Of a stretch of DNA of 41,802 bases, positions 6,501-36,530 are shown piece by piece. Position 1 is the first letter of the stretch. Each line of letters opens with the position of its first letter. The DNA comes from a bacterium (GTDB taxonomy: Bacteria > Armatimonadota > Chthonomonadetes > Chthonomonadales > CAJBBX01). A program made the position numbers and the translations under genes. The stretch is taken from positions 1 through 41,802 of the forward strand of contig VFKD01000084.1 of the NCBI GenBank assembly GCA_009885735.1. Reading direction: 5' to 3'. The notes below the pieces were generated by a model. It was not told where the DNA came from, searched no databases, and worked only from the letters and a program-made list of their open reading frames with translations.

Positions 6501-6615
6501 CATCCTGAGCGCTCGTCAGCCCACCAACCCGCTCACCCCGTACGCGGCAATTCCGCTTATCCTGAGCCTGCCACGGCCCCACCGTGGCAGCGTCGAAGGA
6601 CCGTAGTCGAAGGGG
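6501..6615. repeat. REP-like element(s) of the ATCCTGAGC...GTCGAAGG family
   Basis: catcctgagc, and atcctgagc-[ctgccacgg cccca ccgtggcag]-cgtcgaagga; reverse complement of the units at 37744-37987. Confidence 0.7.
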
Positions 6616-6692
6616 TGATGGACCACTCCTCTCGCTCCAGTCCTCGCAAATGCTGAAAGAGAGGCGCCGACCTGTGCCGCCCCAGGCGCTTC

Positions 6693-7060
6693 CTACCTCG
6701 CCCCACACGCTTGCAGGCATGCTTGCATATGCCCCTTAGCTTCTGCCGCGATGGTGCATACCTGCTCCAGCTTATACTCCTTCGCGCCGATGACCTCGAG
6801 GTTCAGCGGGCCGTCGTAACCGTTCTCGTGCAAAACTCGGATGTAGCCCACGAGGTCGATGTCGCCCCGGCCGTTTGCCTGGTCTTCCGGCTTTCCGGGT
6901 CCCTGCTGGCGGCCCTTGCAGTCGCGGATGTGCACGTGTTTGACCCGCGAGATCACGGCGGCGATGGCCTCCACCGGGTTCTCGTTCGCGCGGTAGATGT
7001 GCGAGGGGTCCATGTCGATGCCGAATGAGGGAGACGAGATGGCGGTCATTGCGCGCAGCG
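6693..7060 (-). pseudogene. Orphan 3' portion (about 122 codons) of the sugar phosphate isomerase/epimerase gene at 8091-8888
   Basis: Colinear with 8091-8458 (offset 1398). About 35 substitutions by manual count, only 3 non-synonymous. The 5' half is missing. Confidence 0.9.
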
Positions 7061-11462: not shown

Positions 11463-13634
11463 TTACCGTGGCTTTGCCGATGCCTGGCTAGAGTAGGCGC
11501 TCTCCTGCCCGCTGCTTCTCACTGCCGTCACTCTGTAGTAGTAGGTCACGCCCGAGGTGACGCTCGTGTCGATGAACGACGTCCCGGCAGTGATCGTCGC
11601 CCGGAGTGTGTACCCACTGCCTGTGGTGGTGGACCGGTATATCCGGTTCTGCGTCACCCCGGAGCTGACAGACTGTATCCACTTGAGTGTCACCTTCGCC
11701 TTCGCCGCCGTGGCGGTCAGCTTCGTTGGCGCTGCGAGTGGAGGCGGTGCGGTGGGAGTGGCGCTCACCTCGCTGGAGTTGGGGCTCACTCCCCCTAAGC
11801 TTACGGCGGCGACCACGTAGTAGTAGGTGACTCCGTTCGTCAGGCCGGTATCGGTGAAGCCTGTCCCAACCACCTGGCCCACGATCAGATAGGGTCCGCC
11901 GGGCACCGTGGCCCGCTGCACGTTGTAGTAGTCGGCCGAGGCGCTCGCACTCCACGAGAGCGACACCTGCGCGTTGCTCGCCGTGGCGGTCAGATTGGTC
12001 GGAGCAGCAGGGGGTGGTGGGATGCCGCCCTCCGCCGCCACAACGGCTGCGTATGCGTCTACCAGTCCGCGCCCGAACGTGGTATCGTACCCTACAGCGC
12101 CCAGGTCCCTGGCGGTAGTGAAAAGGCAGTTCTCCACCGCAGTATTGGACAGGGACGGATTCGCCGACCAAGCCAGCGCGAGCGCCCCGGTAACGTGCGG
12201 CGCTGCCATGGATGTACCGGAGTAGATGTCCCATGCGATAGGCCATGCCCGTACGGTTGTGCTCGAGCCTGCCTGACCAAGAAGAATCGCGCCGTCCGTG
12301 TCGGACACTGATACGGAGGGTATCCAATACGGCAAAGTGCCCTCCAAAACCCCTTCGAAGTTCCCAGGAGCGTTGTTGTACATGACAACGGCCGTAGCGC
12401 CGGCGTTCATGGCGTTCGTCACTTTATCCACGAAGGTGGCGTCGCCCCGCTGGATGAGCGCTATATTCCCGGCAACGGCAGGTGGAAACTGCCCCGCAAA
12501 CCCTCGCCCGCAGTCCACGATTATTCCCGTGATTCCTTGGGTGGTCGACGCACCCCAAAAGGAGATGGACGAGAACGTCTGCGTGGTCCGTACATAACTC
12601 TCGATCATCCCCCAGGTGTCAGGAACCGAAGACAGAACGCTCACTCCCGGCGCCGAAATGTCGAGCCCCGTTCCAGTGTTGGACCACGACGCATGGGCGT
12701 TGTTGGCGTCCACCGCCCCCACAGCAATATTCGTTGGGTAACCGGCCGGATAGATGAGAGCTGCGCCTCCGTCATTCCCCGCGGCGCAAACGATCAAGGC
12801 TCCTTTGCTGCGCATCTCCTCAAAGAAGAGCTGCTCGGTGGTAGAAGGAGCCGCGCCCCCTAGACTGAGATTGACTACCTTGCAGTTAGCCTCCTCCACG
12901 AGCCATCGCACTCCGGCCATAACCGTTTCGACGGTTCCACCCCACATATCCAGTACGCGGGCGTGATAGAGGTTCGCCGAATAGGCGGCGCCCAGAACTC
13001 CCCTTGTGTTGTTTGCAGCGAGGATCGTCCCCGCGACATGCGTGCCGTGCGTCTCCGTCACCCACTCATTCCAATCTTCGTCAAAGGCGAACTCGAAGAT
13101 GGGATCGTTGTCGCCCCAAATCGTATCGATACCGCCGCGATAGTTGGGCGCGATGTCCGGATGGTTGTAGTCTACGCCGGTGTCCGCAACGCCCACATTG
13201 ATTCCAGCCCCAGTAATCCCTCGGGAGTGGGTCTCTGTGGCGCGCGTGGTGATGAGCCCGTACAGTCCGTTGTTCAGGGCGGGGACGAGCTGCTCGTCTT
13301 CCAAACCGAGAGTGTATCTCATCGGTACGCGCTCCACGTATGCTACGCGCGGATTCCGGGCTATCGCCTGAGCGACCGCGTTACTCGCCCCTTTAATGGC
13401 CACTGCTTTTACTCCCGGAAACCTTGATTTCAGTTGCGCTCCCAGACGTCGTATGGCGGCAATATTCTCGTGGGAGACTCCAGCGCGGAATCCAACAAAG
13501 TACTCCCCGGGAGAGAAGTCGGGACGCATCCGTGAATTGGCGATTCCTCTTCCTCCCTGGGCTTGCGCGGAAACAACGGCAGGGCCTAGTGCGGCCAATG
13601 CCATCACGAACAGAATCAGAAATCGATGTTTCAT
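11463..13634 (-). CDS. Secreted S8 subtilisin-like serine protease with propeptide, PA domain and two fibronectin type III domains
   Basis: Signal peptide MKHRFLILF; triad motifs DTG, HGTHVAG, GTSMAAPHV; PA domain (IALIQRG..FVDKV.NA..AGA); two FN3 repeats (APTNLTAT..VSLSW..YYYVV). Confidence 0.95.
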   Translation of the reverse strand: MKHRFLILFVMALAALGPAVVSAQAQGGRGIANSRMRPDFSPGEYFVGFRAGVSHENIAAIRRLGAQLKSRFPGVKAVAIKGASNAVAQAIARNPRVAYVERVPMRYTLGLEDEQLVPALNNGLYGLITTRATETHSRGITGAGINVGVADTGVDYNHPDIAPNYRGGIDTIWGDNDPIFEFAFDEDWNEWVTETHGTHVAGTILAANNTRGVLGAAYSANLYHARVLDMWGGTVETVMAGVRWLVEEANCKVVNLSLGGAAPSTTEQLFFEEMRSKGALIVCAAGNDGGAALIYPAGYPTNIAVGAVDANNAHASWSNTGTGLDISAPGVSVLSSVPDTWGMIESYVRTTQTFSSISFWGASTTQGITGIIVDCGRGFAGQFPPAVAGNIALIQRGDATFVDKVTNAMNAGATAVVMYNNAPGNFEGVLEGTLPYWIPSVSVSDTDGAILLGQAGSSTTVRAWPIAWDIYSGTSMAAPHVTGALALAWSANPSLSNTAVENCLFTTARDLGAVGYDTTFGRGLVDAYAAVVAAEGGIPPPPAAPTNLTATASNAQVSLSWSASASADYYNVQRATVPGGPYLIVGQVVGTGFTDTGLTNGVTYYYVVAAVSLGGVSPNSSEVSATPTAPPPLAAPTKLTATAAKAKVTLKWIQSVSSGVTQNRIYRSTTTGSGYTLRATITAGTSFIDTSVTSGVTYYYRVTAVRSSGQESAYSSQASAKPR

Positions 13635-13841
13635 GGTAGTCCTCGTTTTCTTGTGGTGTGCTTCAGGGCGCAACTGATAGCGGCTCTCGACAGGCAAACT
13701 ATATCGGAACCCAGAAATTGTTTGGCAGCCTCTCGCCTAAGACGTCGACCAGAGAATCCGATCGGCCACCGGGGTCGTATCCGGAATGCCCGCCCGGAAC
13801 CTCGCGAAGTGTTCCGGACGGGAGACTTTGGAGGCATTGCG

Positions 13842-14318
13842 CTACGGAGCCGGCTGGTCGATCCGCCTCGTTGCGCCCCTCGGAAGAATCTGGAAAGCGA
13901 CCAGCTCCAAGTTTGTGGCTCCTTCGTTGCGGACGATGTGCCCACCTTCACCATCATCCACGAAGCAAGTGCCCGCAGGGTGGACATTCGGCGTGCTGGG
14001 ATCATCGCTGTGATACTCGGTTGCCGTGCCGGATTTGACCGAGATGATGGACGGGCCAGGGTGAGAGTGCCAGCCGGTGTGCCCACCCGGTACGAGAGTG
14101 TTGTACACCACATATACGTCCGAAGAGCCTTTGGTCTTGATTTCGACATTGTTGATGTCGCTCTTGCTGTGGCTGTGGATTTCCTCCAACCGCGTCGGCC
14201 CCGCGATGATAGTGGTGCTGAGCCCCAGGCTGGGCGTCGCCCAGGCGACCCTCAATGCGATTAGTCCGACTACACTGGCGACGACGGTTCCTGCCAACAT
14301 CAGCTTAAATCTGCTCAT
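13842..14318 (-). CDS. Secreted cupin-domain protein
   Basis: GAGGAG RBS; signal peptide; PGGHTGWHSHPG...AG.CF...HIVRN cupin motifs. Confidence 0.85.
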   Translation of the reverse strand: MSRFKLMLAGTVVASVVGLIALRVAWATPSLGLSTTIIAGPTRLEEIHSHSKSDINNVEIKTKGSSDVYVVYNTLVPGGHTGWHSHPGPSIISVKSGTATEYHSDDPSTPNVHPAGTCFVDDGEGGHIVRNEGATNLELVAFQILPRGATRRIDQPAP

Positions 14319-14372
14319 GGTCTCTCTCCTCTTGTTTCCACCTCGCGGGATTGCGGGGTAGGTGTTGGAGAG

Positions 14373-14405
14373 AGTTTAGCGAGCAACCCTGACGGAACCC
14401 TGAAA
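14373..14405 (-). promoter_or_regulatory. SARP-type direct-repeat operator and -10 box upstream of the cupin
   Basis: TTTCAGGGTTCCGTCAGGG-N8-TAAACT; TCAGGG repeats at an 11-bp period; identical 19-mer at 18418-18436. Confidence 0.75.
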
Positions 14406-14431
14406 TGGATGCTCCGGCCAAAAAAAGAGTC

Positions 14432-14473
14432 AAAAAAGTACGGGTAGGAGGCGACATACCTGCTGCCCGTACT
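14432..14473 (-). terminator. Rho-independent terminator of the regulator gene
   Basis: AGTACGGGCAG...CTACCCGTACT stem followed by T tracts on the minus strand. Confidence 0.75.
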
Positions 14474-14491
14474 ACCACCACCGCTCACTTG

Positions 14492-17400
14492 TCACTCGAG
14501 CGCGTACTCTACAGCCTCTTCCCAGCTCATAGCTCGGCCCTGTGTCCACGCCGCAGTGTATGATTCTTCGTCCATCGCTTCGCGTAAACTCACCGCCGCC
14601 TGTGTCAGTTTCTCACGTTCAATCGGCGGAATCGGCGCTCCCAGATGCTCGCGGAGCGCCTCCGCTGCGCCAAATAGTCGCGCAGCAGACTGGGAGTCCT
14701 GTTGCGCAAGTGATAGCCTGGCGACCGACTCGAGAGCCCCGACTCCGACTAGTCTGTCTCCCACTTCGCGCAAGAGGCGAAGGCAATCAACCAGGAGGAA
14801 CCGTGCATGACCGTAGTCTGCTTGATCCAGGGCGAGACATCCGAGGTGAAGCAAGCATATACCGATGCCCGGTTTTTCGGCAAGATCGCGTTTGATGGCC
14901 AAGCTCTGTTCAAACAACGTACGTGCTCTGGCGTATTCCCCCTGAGCTTTGGCGATCAATCCGAGGTTGTTGAGATTGACCGACTGCGAGATTCTGCTAC
15001 CGGTCTCCAGGTCCAGCGCAAGACCTTCTTCGAGAAACACGCGTGCCTCGCCAAGCTCACCTTGCTCGATTGCAGTCATACCAAGGTTGGTCAAGACACT
15101 CGACTGCCACGGACGATTACCGATCTCCCGCATGAAGGCCAAACTTTCTTCGAACAGCGTGCGCGCTCGCGAAGACTGGCCTTGCTCCAGTGCGAGTATT
15201 CCTAGATTGTTGAGCGTGCCGCACGCATTTTCACGGTCACCAAGCTCCCTTCGGATCTGTAGGTTCTCTTCGTGGTAAACCTGTGCCTGCGCATAGTCTC
15301 CCTGTACGTCGGCCGCCAACCCTAGATTGTTCAGGACGAGCGCCTGTATCTCCCGGTCGCCCACTTCCCGCGCAATTATCAGGCTCTCGTCAAAAAGTGC
15401 ATAGGCTTGCACGAAGTCTCCCTGCATTCGAGACGCTGCACCGAGAAAGTTGAGCGACGTGGCAACGCCTTCCCTGTCCCCGAGATTTCGCCAGACGGTC
15501 AGTGCTTGTTCATGCAGCTCTCGGGCCTCTGCAAATTCACCCTGCTCGAAAGCTAGAATGCCCGCTCCGTGGAACGTATGGCCCCGCGCTCGGTCAAACT
15601 CGATCGTTTGATCAGCCAACTCTCCGCTTGCATTGGATTGCTTATGAGCGATTTCTCCCAGTCGCAAAGCGCCAGCGCACCATTCTCGTCCCTCTCTGAA
15701 GTAACCGCGAATTCGCCAGAACCGCGCGAGAGCCCCGGCGAGAAGCATACAGGAAATGGCATCCGCTCCGCCGGAAGAGGACCACGCCAGCGCCGCCCGA
15801 AGATTATCGTTCTCGGAGTCAAGGGTCTCCAAAAAACGCTTCTGTTCCTTACCGTGCAAGATTTCGCGGTTAGGCTTTGTGAGCTTGAGATAGTAGGAGA
15901 GGTGCCGGTCGTTGATGGCCTCTCCCTCTCTCAGAGCAGCAAGCCGCTCTTGACCGTACTGGCGCAGCGTTTCCAACATCCGGAATCGGAACGCCCCGGC
16001 TTCCGTCTCGCTAGACAGTACTAGCGAGCACTCCCGTAGTTGCTCCAGATAGTCTAAGGCGAGCGGCTCCTCGCACACCTGCGCAGCCGCCTCAATGCTC
16101 CAGCCTCCACGGAAGACCGATAAGCGCGAGAAAAAGCGCTGGAGCTCGGGTGGCAGAAGCCGATAGCTCCACTCCACCGCACCGCGCAGGGTCCTCTGCC
16201 GTTCGGAGACATCTCTCTTGCGGGTAGCCAGAAAGTCGAACCGGTGCGAGAGCTGCGCAAGCATCTGAGTTGGAGTGAGGACCTGTACTCTGGCAGCTGC
16301 GAGCTCTATAGCGAGCGGGATACCCTCGAGTCCGCCCACCAGAGCCGCAACGGCCGCCGCATTGGCGTTGTTGACCTGGAAGTAGGGGATAACCTGCTGC
16401 GCCCGGTCGATAAATAGCTGCACGCTGTCATACAGCGAGAGCTCTTCGGGAGTCTCCTCCGTTCCCGGCACCGGCAGCGGTGGGAGAGAGAATCCGCGCT
16501 CGGCCGAGAGACCTAGAAGCTGCCGCGAAGTGGTGAGTACCTTTAGCTCAGGAACGCCGGAAAGGAGCGTCCGCACCACGTCGGTCCCGCCCTCCAGCAG
16601 ATGCTCAAGGTTATCCAGTACGAGAAGCGTCGGCTTCTCCGAGAGCGCTTCCACTGCCTGCTCCAGAGGCTCTTTCTGTGGGGAACGGACGACGTCCAGG
16701 CTATCTAGAATCGCTCCGGCAATGTGGGCCGGGTCACGAAGGTCCGCGAGCGGCACGAAATAGACGGCGCCGGCAAACGAGTCCGCCAGCTGCTCCGCCA
16801 CTTCCACTGAGAGTCGCGACTTTCCGTTCCCTGCGGGGCCCGTTATGGTGACGAGCCGAACGGAATACGAGCGAAGCATCTCTCGCAGCTGCGCTATCTC
16901 TTCGAGTCGACCGAAAAAGCGCGTAAATCGTGGAGGCACGTTCGGCCTGTGTCCCGAATCCGCGGCAAGCGGACCAAAATCCGTTTGAGGCATTCCTGGA
17001 TACTCAACCTGAAACAGCCTCCGAGCCTCTGGTATATCCCGCAGCCGCCAGACCCCCAGATCCACAAGCCGAATTCCACCCTCGTTCCGACCGGATGCGA
17101 GGGAAGTCGTGGAATCAGAGGCAATGATCTGGCCCCCATGCGCCGCGGTGAGCATTCGGGTTGCTTGCTGTAGCGCGATTCCGTGATACCGACCTTCTTC
17201 GCCCGATTGGCTGACGTCTCCGGAGTGCAGCACCATGCGGACTCTTATAGAAGCCACTCCATCGGGCCAGGTCTCTGACGCCAGCGCCTGCTGGGCCGCG
17301 ACTGCACAAGAGAGTGCGCTGCTGGCGGTGGTAAACGCCATCACAAAGCCATCTCCCGTTTCCTGTACCTCCTGACCGCCCTGCCGCAAGACCTCTTGCC

Positions 17401-18337
17401 GAATCAGCAGGTGGTGGCGTTCCCTGGCCGCCAAGTACTCCTCCGGGGCGGTTTGGAACAGTCGCTTGCTGCCCTCTATGTCGGTCATGAGGAAGGTGAT
17501 GGTTGCCGGCCTGCGGCTCAGAAGTGGTGAACCGGCTGACTTGCGGGCGCGTTTTCTGGGAGGTTCCCCGGAATCCGGCGCGGCAGTCCCTGATCTGCTC
17601 TCGATCTGGCTGACCAGCGACCGAAGCCTTGGAGAAGGCTCCCCGCCCACCTCCTCGGCCAGCAGCCGTTGGGACTCCTTGTAGTGACGGAGCGCGGCTC
17701 CGGATTGGCCATCCGCGTCCAGAAGGCGGATCAGAATCTCCTGGCTCTCTTCTCTAAGCGGATCGATAGATGCCGCGTGACGGGCATGTGTGAGCGCTGA
17801 GTGCGTGTCGCCGATTTCCTCAAGGTGGTTCACCAACGCGAGGACGGAATCGAAGAACAGCCCATTCAACCGTTCTTGTTCGACCGAAATCCAATCCTCG
17901 TAAAAACCGGGCAGTAGCGGCCCCTGGTAGAGTTCCACCGCTTTGCTCAGGTACTGTGCGCGTTCCAAAGTACTCCCGGCCTTCGCGGACGCCTTGATCG
18001 CCGTTTCGAATTCCGCGACATCGGTGGTGACGGTGGAAGGATTCAGACCCACACTAAAGCGGTCCGCCCGGATCACGGTTCCCTGCGGCACCCCAGGCGG
18101 CTCGAACTGATTGCGGAGGCTGGAGAGGGCGACTGAGAGGCTGTTGCGCAGCGTGAGCGCGTCGCTCTCGGGCCACAGCATCTCGATGAGAATCTCGCGG
18201 GAATGAGCGTGACGCAGGTGGAAGGCCAAGTAGGAGAAGAGAGATGCGACCTTCTGGCTCTTGAAACGGGTGAATGCCTTCTCCCCGCACCGGGCCTCAA
18301 GACTGCCAAGCAATGTTACGCGCCAGAGGTTATTCAT
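14492..18337 (-). CDS. AfsR/SARP-family STAND regulator: wHTH-BTAD, class III cyclase-like domain, NB-ARC ATPase, TPR repeats
   Basis: LLGSL..SREILIEMLWP..LRNSLS (wHTH); AVELYQGPLL..DPLRE (BTAD); TFLMTDIEGS and GDGF (cyclase); GPAGNGKS, LLVLDNLEH, TTSR, GIPLAIELAA (NB-ARC); many LNNLG TPR units. Start at the ATG after AGGAG. Confidence 0.92.
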   Translation of the reverse strand: MNNLWRVTLLGSLEARCGEKAFTRFKSQKVASLFSYLAFHLRHAHSREILIEMLWPESDALTLRNSLSVALSSLRNQFEPPGVPQGTVIRADRFSVGLNPSTVTTDVAEFETAIKASAKAGSTLERAQYLSKAVELYQGPLLPGFYEDWISVEQERLNGLFFDSVLALVNHLEEIGDTHSALTHARHAASIDPLREESQEILIRLLDADGQSGAALRHYKESQRLLAEEVGGEPSPRLRSLVSQIESRSGTAAPDSGEPPRKRARKSAGSPLLSRRPATITFLMTDIEGSKRLFQTAPEEYLAARERHHLLIRQEVLRQGGQEVQETGDGFVMAFTTASSALSCAVAAQQALASETWPDGVASIRVRMVLHSGDVSQSGEEGRYHGIALQQATRMLTAAHGGQIIASDSTTSLASGRNEGGIRLVDLGVWRLRDIPEARRLFQVEYPGMPQTDFGPLAADSGHRPNVPPRFTRFFGRLEEIAQLREMLRSYSVRLVTITGPAGNGKSRLSVEVAEQLADSFAGAVYFVPLADLRDPAHIAGAILDSLDVVRSPQKEPLEQAVEALSEKPTLLVLDNLEHLLEGGTDVVRTLLSGVPELKVLTTSRQLLGLSAERGFSLPPLPVPGTEETPEELSLYDSVQLFIDRAQQVIPYFQVNNANAAAVAALVGGLEGIPLAIELAAARVQVLTPTQMLAQLSHRFDFLATRKRDVSERQRTLRGAVEWSYRLLPPELQRFFSRLSVFRGGWSIEAAAQVCEEPLALDYLEQLRECSLVLSSETEAGAFRFRMLETLRQYGQERLAALREGEAINDRHLSYYLKLTKPNREILHGKEQKRFLETLDSENDNLRAALAWSSSGGADAISCMLLAGALARFWRIRGYFREGREWCAGALRLGEIAHKQSNASGELADQTIEFDRARGHTFHGAGILAFEQGEFAEARELHEQALTVWRNLGDREGVATSLNFLGAASRMQGDFVQAYALFDESLIIAREVGDREIQALVLNNLGLAADVQGDYAQAQVYHEENLQIRRELGDRENACGTLNNLGILALEQGQSSRARTLFEESLAFMREIGNRPWQSSVLTNLGMTAIEQGELGEARVFLEEGLALDLETGSRISQSVNLNNLGLIAKAQGEYARARTLFEQSLAIKRDLAEKPGIGICLLHLGCLALDQADYGHARFLLVDCLRLLREVGDRLVGVGALESVARLSLAQQDSQSAARLFGAAEALREHLGAPIPPIEREKLTQAAVSLREAMDEESYTAAWTQGRAMSWEEAVEYALE

Positions 18338-18403
18338 TCCGACTCCTGGAAACGGCACGTTAACGCAGATCGGTTTGACCCTGCTGCGCGCTGATCCACT
18401 CCC

Positions 18404-18436
18404 ATCGTAATGTCACGCCCTGACGGAACCCTGAAA
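18404..18436 (-). promoter_or_regulatory. SARP-type direct-repeat operator and -10 box upstream of the regulator
   Basis: TTTCAGGGTTCCGTCAGGG-N8-TACGAT; same geometry as at 14373-14405. Confidence 0.75.
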
Positions 18437-18792
18437 CGACAGGCCGCCAATCTCGGGTGTTTTGCCGCCGCAAACTCTAGGTGCTTAACGGTTGCGAACA
18501 TGGAGTGATTCTATCTGAGTGTTGAAACCCCTCCTGCGGCGACATGGCGAACGAAAAAAGCTGCTCGGTCTGGTGCCCGAGCGGCTTGAGTGCGAGCCAC
18601 TACGATGCTGAGCCGCAACTACACTGACCGACTTCGGCTGCCGTTCGAAGTTCGAAAAGACGGATCGCTGCTTCGTCCCTGATTGGCAAGCCGAAACCTC
18701 TTGTGCCGATCGGGTGAGAAACCGCTGCGTCGTCAACAGGTGGCGGCGCCGGCTCCAGCACCATGTGTCGCCTGGGCTGCTCGAATGCGCCA

Positions 18793-32187: not shown

Positions 32188-33120
32188 TCATAGGCGCGAC
32201 TTCCGAGCCATCGCCAGGACAGTTTGAAACTCCGGCGCCTCCACTGAGCGGTCGACTACTGACACATATGCATCCTTGAAGCCGGCTGTTTCCATCAGCT
32301 TCGTCATCTCCACCCTCGAGAAGCCAAGCCAGACGTCGGCGTAGAGCTCGCGGGCCGCTTCGACCTCGTGCTTGAGCAGATCAAGTACCGTAATGGATCC
32401 TCCCGAACGGAGGACGCGATGGGCCTCCGAGAGCGCTCGGTCCGGGTGGAGGGCGTGGTGCAGCGACTGGTGGAACAGGGCAAGGTCGACCGACCCAGAT
32501 TCGATAGGGAGGCTCTCCATGTCGCCGGTGCGATACTCGACGTTTGACAGGCCGTGGCGCGCCACAAGCTCGCGCCCAAATTCCGCCATCTTCTCCGATG
32601 CATCGACGGCGATGATGCGCTCGGCGCTTTGGGCCAGCATGAGCGCCAAAGTGGCCTCGCCGGCGCCGATGTCCGCAATCACCATGGGTGGAAGCAGCCG
32701 TATCAGCATCTCGGAGAGCGCCTTCCAGCTTCTCCCCGGCACGTAGCTGCGGCCAAACCGTCCGGCAAGCTCGTCGAAATGACTGCGAAGTAGGTCCTTG
32801 CGGCGGTTCACGACCAGCGCAAGAGCCTCGTCATCCCTGCCGCACTCGGGCAGCTCCTCGCTGCTTCTGCTGAGGACCTCGCGGACCAGAGCCTCGGCGT
32901 TCGGGGCAATGAGGGCGCGATAGATGCTCTTCTGGCCGGACTTCGTAGATTCGACCAGCCCTGCGGCTCGAAGCTGCGTGAGCTGCATAGAGATGCGGCT
33001 CTGGCCCATTTCGAGTATCTCCTGCAGCTCGGCCACGCTCAGGTCTTCCTGCGAGAGCAGGCGAAGAATGCGCACTCGCGGTTTGTCCGCCAGCACGCGA
33101 AGCAGCTTCAGTGTGTCCAT
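32188..33120 (-). CDS. sahR: ArsR-HTH plus SAM-binding methyltransferase-fold regulator (SahR-like)
   Basis: [31 protein letters not shown]; [12 protein letters not shown] and SLHH methyltransferase fold; divergent from ahcY. Confidence 0.8.
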
Positions 33121-33126
33121 GTACAG

Positions 33127-33170
33127 ATTGTAGCATCAATATATCACTATGTGTTGATGTATGGTATAAT
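33127..33170. promoter_or_regulatory. Divergent sahR/ahcY promoters with a palindromic operator
   Basis: Minus-strand TGcTACAAT (33127-33132) 6 nt before the sahR ATG; ATATCA-N8-TGATGT at 33141-33160; plus-strand TGgTATAAT at 33162-33170. Confidence 0.7.
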
Positions 33171-33191
33171 GCGCATGGAAGGAGACCCACA

Positions 33192-34622
33192 ATGTCCACT
33201 ACACTCGTTGAAAATGAAGTAATGTCGCACAAAGTCGCCGATCTGTCGCTTGCAGATTGGGGCCGCAAAGAGATCGAGATTGCCGAGCAAGAGATGCCCG
33301 GCCTAATGTCCATTCGTCGCAAGTATGCCGCCGAGAAGCCTCTGGACGGCGTCCGCGTGATGGGCTCGCTCCATATGACCATCCAGACGGCCGTGCTCAT
33401 CGAGACGCTGGCCGATCTTGGCGCCGAGGTTCGCTGGGCAAGCTGCAATATCTTCTCTACCCAGGACCACGCTGCTGCAGCCATCGCGGTTACCGGAGTG
33501 CCTGTGTTCGCCTGGAAGGGCGAGACCCTCGAGGAGTACTGGTGGTGTACCTACGAGGCGATGAGTTTTGCAAAGGGCAAGGGCCCCGAGCTCATCGTGG
33601 ATGACGGCGGAGACGCCACCCTGCTGATCCACAAGGGCTACGAGCTCGAGAACGGCAGCGACTGGGTCAACACGCCGTCCGAGAGCCATGAAGAGAGCGT
33701 CATCAAGGACTTGCTGAAGAAGGTCCACGCAGAGAGCCCGCGCCGCTGGCACGAGATGGTGGCGGACTGGCGAGGCGTGTCGGAGGAGACAACGACCGGC
33801 GTTCACCGCCTCTACAAGATGCAGGAGACCGGTTCGCTCCTGGTGCCCGCAATCAACGTGAACGACTCCGTGACCAAGTCAAAATTCGACAACCTCTACG
33901 GCTGCCGAGAGTCGCTGGTGGACGGCATCAAGCGGGCCACGGACGTGATGCTCTCGGGCAAAGTCGCGGTCGTTTGCGGTTATGGAGACGTGGGCAAGGG
34001 CTCAGCGCAGTCTCTCAGCCATAACGGCGCTAGAGTGATTGTTACCGAGGTGGACCCCATCAATGCTCTGCAGGCTGCCATGGCAGGCTACCAAGTTGCT
34101 CCCATTGAGGACACGCTTGGGACGGCAGACATCTACGTCACCTGTACGGGCAACGTCGACATCATCACGCTTGAGCACATGTCGAAGATGAAGGACCAGG
34201 CGATCGTCTGCAACATCGGCCACTTCGACAACGAGATTCAAGTGGACCTGCTGAACAACGCTCCGGGCGTTGTCCGGACGAATATCAAGCCGCAGGTCGA
34301 CAAGTACACCTTCCCGGCAGGGCAGAGCATCTTCCTGCTGGCCGAGGGCCGCTTGGTGAACCTGGGCTGCGCGACGGGCCACCCAAGCTTCGTGATGTCG
34401 AACAGCTTCTCGAACCAGACCCTTGCTCAGATCGACCTCTGGAACAACCGCGACAAGTACGAGGTGGGCGTCTACACGCTTCCGAAGAAGCTCGACGAGG
34501 AAGTGGCGCGTCTGCACCTCGAGAAGATCGGAGCCAAGCTCACTACGCTGAGCGCGAAGCAGGCCGACTACATCGGAGTGCCGGTGGAAGGTCCATATAA
34601 GCCGGAGAGCTACCGGTACTAG
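33192..34622 (+). CDS. ahcY: Adenosylhomocysteinase (SAH hydrolase)
   Basis: [58 protein letters not shown]; AAGGAG RBS. Confidence 0.98.
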
Positions 34623-35977: not shown

Positions 35978-36396
35978 TGCCTCGAAATCTTGTGTTCGTG
36001 GATACAAGCGGGTGGTTCGCCTCGCTCGTTCCGTCGGATTCAGACCATGTCGCTGCCCAGAGCTGGCTCAGGGCCAATCGTCGCGCGGTCTTCACGACCG
36101 ACTTTGTGCTTGATGAGACCCTTACACTTCTCCGGGCAAGGGGACAATCCAACCGTGCCCTTGCATTCGGGCACGCCCTGCTAGACGGCTCCCTCGCACA
36201 ACTGTATTTCCTTGCAGAGGACGACATTCGTGAGGCGTGGACTTTGTTCAGCACGTATGGTGACAAGCAATGGAGTTTCACCGACTGCACGAGCTTTGCT
36301 ATCATGTCTCGACTGAGCATCCCAACCGCGCTCGCGTTCGACCACCACTTCGGTCAGATTGGCACCGTGATTGTAGTGCCGGGCTTACCACTCTAA
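35977..36396 (+). CDS. vapC: PIN-domain (VapC-family) toxin
   Basis: VFVDTSGW, TTDFVLDET, SFTDCTSF and AFDHHF motifs. Confidence 0.92.
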   Translation: MPRNLVFVDTSGWFASLVPSDSDHVAAQSWLRANRRAVFTTDFVLDETLTLLRARGQSNRALAFGHALLDGSLAQLYFLAEDDIREAWTLFSTYGDKQWSFTDCTSFAIMSRLSIPTALAFDHHFGQIGTVIVVPGLPL

Positions 36397-36530
36397 GCGC
36401 GAAGCAGGCCGACTAAATCGGGGTGCCGGTGGAAGGGCCGTATAAGCCGGAGACCCATCGGTACTAGGCTGGGGCTAAGTCGTGATGGTTGAGATTCGGC
36501 CCCGCGATACCTGAGTGGAATCGCGGGGCC
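36384..36530 (+). pseudogene. Orphan copy of the last 28 codons of ahcY plus downstream region and hairpin
   Basis: Colinear without indels with 34539-34685 (offset 1845): [26 protein letters not shown] versus [27 protein letters not shown]. Confidence 0.9.

Follow-up and report, generated by a model that had tools for sequence, protein, structure and literature searches.

A candidate SARP-type operator shared by a STAND/TPR regulator and the gene of an exported cupin in a Chthonomonadales (Armatimonadota) genome

SARP promoters, as described in PMC10936776, carry repeats 11 or 22 bp apart with the 3' repeat 8 bp from the -10 box, and the bound dimer replaces the -35 contact. The SARP-LAL regulators join a SARP to a guanylate-cyclase/LAL-like half, according to the relevant sections of two papers (PMC5930380, PMC10972967), and one of them, PimR, is described as binding heptamers with 4-bp spacers (PMC5930380). 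Reviews describe SARPs as confined to actinomycetes, or as occurring mainly there, and associate them with antibiotic clusters (PMC10972967, PMC10936776). A 2026 bioRxiv preprint, going by its available text, surveyed AfsR-like proteins within Actinomycetota only, and the activation-switch motif of the AfsR type is given as F/Y-HD (MHD-like) in the available text of bioRxiv 10.64898/2026.09.02.748808. We found no study on a SARP-type protein outside actinomycetes in the literature searched; in databases, proteins from other phyla already receive such labels by automated annotation. Here we analysed a SARP-type regulator gene and the promoters beside it in a stretch of 41,802 nucleotides (contig VFKD01000084.1 of assembly GCA_009885735.1, called the window below) from a Chthonomonadales bacterium of the phylum Armatimonadota.

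A sequence scan found two exact copies of the 19-mer TTTCAGGGTTCCGTCAGGG, both on the minus strand: operator 1 at 18418-18436, 5' of the regulator gene, and operator 2 at 14387-14405, 5' of the gene of a small cupin. Each holds TCAGGG twice with an 11-bp period, as a previous sequence-only reading of this stretch had reported, and each can be written as the heptamers TTCAGGG-TTCC-GTCAGGG, with the 4-bp spacer described for SARP-LAL operators. At both sites exactly 8 bp lie between the end of the 3' heptamer and a TAnnnT box. The cupin site is made up of the 19-mer, TTGCTCGC (8 bp), TAAACT (14373-14378), 54 nt, and the ATG at 14318, and the regulator site of the 19-mer, CGTGACAT (8 bp), TACGAT (18404-18409), 66 nt, and the ATG at 18337. 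No TTGACA-like hexamer was found 17 bp 5' of either -10 box, and the repeats fill the -35 place. Reading both minus-strand sites base by base confirmed the earlier description of an 8-bp spacing without a -35. The Streptomyces AfsR/SARP rule given with it (11-bp repeats, 8 bp to the -10) matches the description in PMC10936776, and the two window sites follow this geometry to the base.

We consider it likely that the 19-mer is the operator of the adjacent SARP-type activator, a STAND/TPR regulator that would control its own gene and have the exported cupin as its target. In the mechanism that we propose, two SARP domains would bind TTCAGGG and GTCAGGG side by side on one DNA face, replace the missing -35 contact, and recruit RNA polymerase by the 'sigma adaptation' solved for AfsR. 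Operator 1 would drive the regulator gene and create positive feedback, and operator 2, behind a terminator, would drive the cupin, which is of a metal type. The STAND/TPR part, perhaps together with a cyclase-like domain, would be the sensor that licenses activation. From the sequence we infer that the protein binds and activates at these sites, that there is feedback, that the STAND/TPR part senses a signal, and where transcription starts. The regulator could instead repress, occupying the promoter until a signal releases it, and the position of the site over the -35 place, where a bound protein could block polymerase, fits such a role. However, there is no -35 present to block, and in every SARP that has been studied a BTAD domain and the 8-bp spacing go with an activator, as far as the published descriptions go; we regard repression as very improbable.

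The 19-mer is rare in this genome. No further copy was detected in the window at up to three mismatches, and 0 of 100 shuffles gave a match. Over the whole genome, TCAGGG-N5-TCAGGG occurs in two places only, both in the window, and the reversed control pattern occurs once; at most one mismatch over the 12 core positions gives 15 matches, one of them on contig C29. We thus rejected a dispersed repeat, as the genome-wide pattern scans leave the 19-mer at these two promoters.

The regulator gene (14492-18337, minus strand) was delimited by domain searches and by the called protein of 1281 aa, which starts at ATG 18337 within a frame that is open from GTG 18358. From the N-terminus, the predicted protein comprises an OmpR-type winged helix-turn-helix (wHTH) with a BTAD domain, which together form the SARP part (17603-18337), a degenerate class III cyclase-homology domain (about 17003-17503), a P-loop STAND NTPase (about 16520-16921), and TPR repeats (about 14639-15643), all located by domain searches. 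BTAD (PF03704) scores 78.7 bits over residues 112-252 (cut-off 22.1), as expected of a SARP. With phmmer, residues 8-245 align to the SARP domain of AfsR (8hvr, E 8.8e-10) and residues 35-246 to EmbR (2fez), in agreement with a winged helix of the OmpR type. AAA_16 reaches 38.6 bits (cut-off 32.6), NB-ARC of Pfam stays at 19.2 bits, under its cut-off of 23.5, and the NTPase motifs are visible as Walker A GPAGNGKS and Walker B LLVLDN; an NB-ARC-type NOD homologous to that of AfsR was not recognised. TPR_12 totals 159.5 bits over five stretches at the C-terminus, the NCBIfam AfsR model matches the region 906-1126 only, and the nearest named relative comes from Armatimonas sp. (68%). The NLR-like TPR sensor of the earlier reading is retained in its SARP domain, STAND NTPase, and TPR, and a class III cyclase-homology domain that it had missed has to be added.

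This additional domain lies between the SARP and NTPase parts and matches PF00211 with 25.7 bits (cut-off 21.9) over residues about 267-453. Among solved structures it matches Ma1120 (4wp9, E 4e-13) and also LipJ (1ybt), and NCBIfam gives a LipJ match too. The class III cyclase motif consists of two metal-binding Asp, a substrate-specifying Lys, and a transition-state Asn and Arg. In our protein D293, D336, and R401 are present, and Gln332 and Gln397 occupy two further motif positions, which we take to be the adenine-specifying Lys and the transition-state Asn of GxxVNxA(A/S)R, respectively. Among the 120 listed regulator relatives of 949, the corresponding columns hold D in 111, D in 93, K in 81, H in 94 (the Asn column), and R in 107. 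Because of the two Gln at the assumed Lys and Asn positions, and because the Asn column is His in 94 of the 120 relatives, the domain is probably degenerate and not a canonical cyclase; with Gln at both positions, it lacks the residue set of an active class III nucleotidyl cyclase.

Compared with AfsR of Streptomyces coelicolor (8hvr, 8k60, 8jke), our regulator shares the SARP domain over residues 8-245 and the combination of a STAND NTPase with TPR, and its promoters share two 11-bp-phased repeats with the 3' repeat 8 bp from the -10, replacing a poor -35. It differs in the extra cyclase-homology domain, in an NTPase without a detectable sequence match to AfsR, in the identical, putatively autoregulatory site, and in the predicted target, a secreted cupin here and afsS in AfsR. 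In the SARP-LAL regulators PimR, SanG, FilR, and PolR of Streptomyces, the SARP is likewise joined to a guanylate-cyclase/LAL-like half, for which our protein has PF00211 and AAA_16 together with the Ma1120 match, and the operators are likewise heptamers with a 4-bp spacer. Their hosts are actinomycetes and their target is a pathway regulator inside a biosynthetic cluster, whereas the host here belongs to Chthonomonadales and the predicted targets are exported proteins. Here we have a recognisable cyclase-homology domain and a long TPR, PimR having been compared by its description only. Moreover, the main operator of PimR is reported off the -35 in the description available (PMC5930380), unlike the window site, which follows the rule of 8 bp and overlap with the -35. 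By its domain order, the regulator resembles SARP-LAL more than plain AfsR because the class III cyclase-homology domain is present. Multidomain proteins of the mycobacterial cyclase-ATPase type, and the Ma1120 and LipJ domains, are alike in the cyclase-homology domain; in our protein, however, this domain is placed between a SARP DNA-binding domain and the NTPase, and Gln occupies the assumed Lys and Asn positions.

The proposed target, a small exported protein of 158 aa (13842-14318, minus strand), was assigned by domain and structure searches and begins with a predicted signal peptide ending AWA/TP. Pfam Cupin_2 gives 23.2 bits, under its cut-off of 27.2; the fold and the His motifs are those of the cupin superfamily, with His84, His86, and His127 invariant in 18 sequences. 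For the AlphaFold model (mean predicted local distance difference test of 83.8), Foldseek ranks TM1459, a Mn cupin, and DddK highest (E 3e-7, probability 1.00), which suggests a metal cupin; these matches are generic small metal cupins only and gave no hint of a substrate. The rest of the window contains no biosynthetic genes or cluster, in contrast with the secondary-metabolite clusters to which SARPs are tied, so an exported-protein target outside an antibiotic cluster, as previously suggested, agrees with the cupin signal peptide and with the gene content.

Between the regulator stop and the cupin promoter, a likely intrinsic terminator (14432-14473, minus strand) was identified by base reading and folding. 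It comprises a hairpin at 14437-14473, T6 at 14432-14437, and a second T-run; a simple terminator scan did not pick up the hairpin. On the other side of the module, upstream of the regulator promoter, there is a terminator-like hairpin with a T-run (18563-18582, minus strand, stem of 6 pairs, tail AGCTTTTTTC), a predicted element that shields the module from the SWIM/SNF2 genes. In the cupin leader (14319-14372, minus strand) a 5' CUCUCC is predicted to pair with the Shine-Dalgarno GGAGAG (-19 kcal/mol, z -3.18). We dropped this leader hairpin as a conserved feature, since the leaders of the two related modules described next (C29 and L008) are predicted to fold otherwise.

Contig C29 of the same genome carries a paralogous module with a regulator (58% identity), the site TTTCAGGGTTCTGTCAGGT followed by 8 bp and TAAACT, a cupin (53%), and a protease-tail remnant. 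Compared with the window, its 8-bp spacer is wholly different and the repeats and the box are kept. The cupin was rare among close relatives of the host, with hits in two of the 41 genomes searched (the host genome G000, and a weak match at E 1.5e-4), and synteny was therefore drawn from metagenomes, which contained 1520 relatives of the cupin. L008 was alone among the 19 cupin loci of other genomes in having a regulator ortholog (56% identity) and the sites. There, site 1 precedes a cupin-regulator pair, in which the cupin lies 86 bp ahead of the regulator, and site 2 comes right after the regulator stop and before an exported HAF-repeat protein. Since the site-bearing cupin sits 86 bp upstream of the regulator, this regulator is probably co-transcribed with the cupin and again self-activated. 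L008 (SYMT01000570.1) is labelled 'Actinomycetota bacterium', and an identical site and module occur in G097:C537, from the same phylum as the host; the taxon label looks wrong. The remaining 18 of the 19 loci have neither regulator nor site and carry another conserved upstream sequence. In the survey of regulator-cupin pairs that had been proposed beforehand, synteny holds for the C29 and L008 pairs, both with the site, but not for these 18 loci. In seven of the cupin loci, from Planctomycetota metagenome-assembled genomes (MAGs; L007, L009, L013, L015-L018), the cupin is preceded by a shared block, GGCACCGCCCCGGCGCTCGGT.CGCGCGCC ... GATGTCTCTCC, behind a hairpin, which looks like a different promoter or control element.

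A metagenome scan with the operator 18-mer gave 75 matches on 73 loci. Eight of them, equal to six distinct sites on five contigs, have (T/C)AnnnT at +8, all in the form (T/C)AnACT; the 67 matches without a box at +8 look like chance, although they were not each placed against genes. On the three contigs with upstream sequence (L045, L066, L080), the site lies directly 3' of the C-terminus of a P0001-like regulator. The cargo genes differ among the metagenome sites and encode a 205-aa protein, a 692-aa protein, or a small membrane protein with a membrane adenylate cyclase. In L080 (3271-4611, minus strand), the operator is followed by the small membrane protein and the membrane-bound class III adenylate cyclase (PF00211, 197 bits), a possible link of the regulator family to cyclic-nucleotide signalling. 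Among 400 further genomes of the phylum, five contained the complete pattern, compared with one that contained the reversed control. Of these five, one is the L008 genome; in two (L147, L148) the match is 5' of genes with signal-peptide-like starts, and in two (L150, L152) it may be chance. Across eight aligned full sites, conservation covers the repeats and the -10 box and does not extend to the 8-bp spacer or the flanks; the TAAACT of operator 2 is kept in C29, L080, and related sites.

It is the recurrence of this geometry beside related regulators, with the spacer free while the repeats and the -10 are kept, that leads us to a functional reading of the 19-mer. Another factor might bind it, or it might be a passive remnant of a duplicated promoter, with the regulator acting elsewhere. 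The link between protein and DNA is drawn from sequence, and two exact copies 4 kb apart are compatible with a recent local duplication. However, the two window copies are exact over the 19-mer, yet their flanks and 8-bp spacers have nothing in common, and the site accompanies regulator orthologs through altered gene orders and cargo. Furthermore, its geometry is the published SARP geometry, and cupin loci without the regulator are also without the site (18 of 19). Another binding factor or a passive remnant is thus unlikely in our view, and an operator of the adjacent SARP-type regulator is preferred.

The third gene of the locus encodes a complete, predicted exported S8 subtilase (11463-13634, minus strand, ATG 13634), which domain searches resolved into the peptidase, a PA domain, and two C-terminal fn3 domains. 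PF00082 scores 169.1 bits, and the motifs DTGVD, HGTHVAG, and GTSMAAPH contain the Asp, His, and Ser of the S8 family. Its start is 207 bp past the cupin stop on the same strand, in agreement with the distance of about 200 bp previously given. A mismatch scan found TTTCTGGGTTCCG 5' of the protease, which we read as a decayed operator half-site (13698-13717, minus strand). The first 13 nt of the operator recur in it with one mismatch at 13705-13717, the second (3') repeat is lost (ATATAG), and no TAnnnT box stands 8 bp on; instead, TATAGT follows 6 bp past the first heptamer, a non-canonical distance. A GC-rich hairpin without a T-run was predicted by folding past the cupin stop (13789-13822, minus strand).

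The regulator may also induce the protease, either because transcription from the cupin promoter continues into it or by acting at the half-site, which would make one regulon of three genes. This is possible, although we lean against it. The gene orientation and short distance, and the lack of a T-run in the hairpin past the cupin, are favourable to read-through. As for the half-site, only five places in the genome match the first 13 nt of the operator at one mismatch, and four of them fall in the window and C29 modules. Contig C29 also keeps a protease remnant in the same order (6528-6752, L103), the last ~75 residues of the fn3 tail with 60% identity to protease residues 672-744, so that the three genes seem to have been duplicated as a unit and the protease then lost. 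In addition, L008 has a full operator at a protein with a related fn3 tail. On the contrary, the half-site has no 3' repeat, and the downstream repeat is the one described as mattering most for AfsR activation (PMC10936776); the placement of TATAGT is off the rule, a hairpin of -25 kcal/mol separates cupin and protease, and the reduction to a remnant in C29 indicates a gene dispensable to the module. Since the half-site is decayed and without the canonical geometry, we rate co-induction, which the sequence-only reading had considered, as the less probable outcome.

The host genome as a whole has 25 BTAD matches, more than any other of the 121 phylum genomes sampled; 77 of the 121 have one or more. 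Several paralogs have private heptamer pairs with the same geometry as in the window, mostly just past their own stop and 5' of genes of exported proteins. On C671 the arrangement is GGGAGAG-TTTT-GGGAGAG-8-TAGACT. C709 has GGGAGAA/GGGATAA upstream and GGGATTT/GGGATGT downstream, C181 has a common 17-mer, CTTTCAGACTTTGGTCA, upstream and downstream, and C520 has GGAAGAG twice, 3' of each of two regulators. Heptamer pairs were found on C552, C283, and C203 as well. For the cargo genes that we examined, the products were TTHB210-like, DUF3466/HAF, strictosidine-synthase-like, PKD, cupin, and unclassified proteins, their putative signal peptides being judged by eye. The recognition helices of C33 and L008 read RNSLSVALSSLR, those of C283 and C709 HNLxNALSSLR, and those of C552 and L119 LNVxLSR; like heptamers thus appear to go with like recognition helices, which fits the assignment of regulators to operators. 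On C190, near 9082 (minus strand), we observed three phased repeats, TCAGTG-N5-TCAGGG-N5-TCAGGT, ~190 nt 5' of a gene of ~190 aa. Its product has a hydrophobic N-terminus, and the gene is oriented convergently to a SARP paralog; the repeats are possibly an operator of the same kind, with three copies.

Such sites were counted under a strict rule, which demanded 5 or more matches over the 7 heptamer positions, an 11-bp period, 8 bp, and TAnnnT. In the host genome, sites were found in 4 of 24 upstream regions and 5 of 20 downstream regions, with 0.019 and 0.015 expected per region, respectively. The rule was fixed after the examples had been seen, which makes this in-genome enrichment optimistic, and we therefore repeated the count on 40 large BTAD genes taken from further genomes in the phylum. 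Here 6 of 39 downstream regions had a site, versus about 1 expected, and one more site lay in a short flank. We conclude from these sequences that a target promoter right behind the regulator gene is an arrangement that recurs in the phylum and is far from universal. The host may then have an NLR-like array of about 25 SARP-STAND-TPR receptors, many with a private operator behind their own stop and a private exported-protein gene, a proposal that we make tentatively and rate a little below even chances. It is about as uncertain, with the doubt slightly prevailing, that the private exported products of such an array would be cupin, HAF-repeat, PKD, beta-propeller, TTHB210-like, or unclassified proteins.

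Several results weigh against these interpretations. In the phylum sample, sites upstream of the regulators showed no enrichment (2 of 40 vs. 1.3 expected), downstream sites were limited to the 6 of 39, and in none of 36 did the upstream and downstream regions have a word of at least 14 bases in common. In the host genome, the identical, putatively autoregulatory site is confined to the subfamily of the window regulator (C33, C181), 2 of 11. The agreement between helices and heptamers may be shared descent of whole modules. At the protein level, the Pfam wHTH model Trans_reg_C reaches 18.8 bits, under its cut-off of 26.2, and for NTPase residues 470-900 a search at E up to 0.01 retrieved no solved chain, not even AfsR. 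Finally, the energy of the hairpin at 14437-14473 is no better than that of shuffles (z -0.35), so the terminator that the sequence-only reading had placed between regulator and cupin is supported by its hairpin and T-runs and not by its folding energy.

The host assembly has 4,990,694 bases in 741 contigs and is 97% complete. The nearest named relatives of its RpoB are Chthonomonadales/Armatimonadota MAGs (79-82% identity), and the contig itself belongs to the Chthonomonadales lineage because the AdoHcyase of the window is 83-89% identical to that of five genomes of the same family or order. The host, a soil and sediment bacterium, thus lies outside the actinobacteria in which SARPs have been described. 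Two other observations concern the surroundings of the AdoHcyase gene (33111-34622, plus strand). Its start is overlapped by a gene for an ArsR-type helix-turn-helix fused to an S-adenosylmethionine-dependent methyltransferase (32188-33120, minus strand), and 1.7 kb downstream of it there is a 30-residue copy of the AdoHcyase C-terminus with 83% identity and one stop (36375-36464, plus strand).

The type of regulator was already known, and what is new here is a legible circuit variant outside the reviewed host and target range of the SARP family. The full SARP promoter grammar can be read in an Armatimonadota genome, where the regulator gene lies next to its own promoter and its predicted target. 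If the array exists as proposed, the -35 replacement of SARPs would also function with an RNA polymerase from a phylum distant from Actinobacteria, and the SARP mode would govern the secretome rather than antibiotics. With two 60-bp promoters and one DNA-binding domain, the locus offers a compact system for asking if sigma adaptation works outside Actinobacteria. The operators of the individual paralogs would be natural specificity swaps between recognition helix and heptamer. Moreover, a readable output coupled to a STAND/TPR/cyclase-like sensor would bring the ligands of bacterial NLR-like transcription factors within reach of a search.

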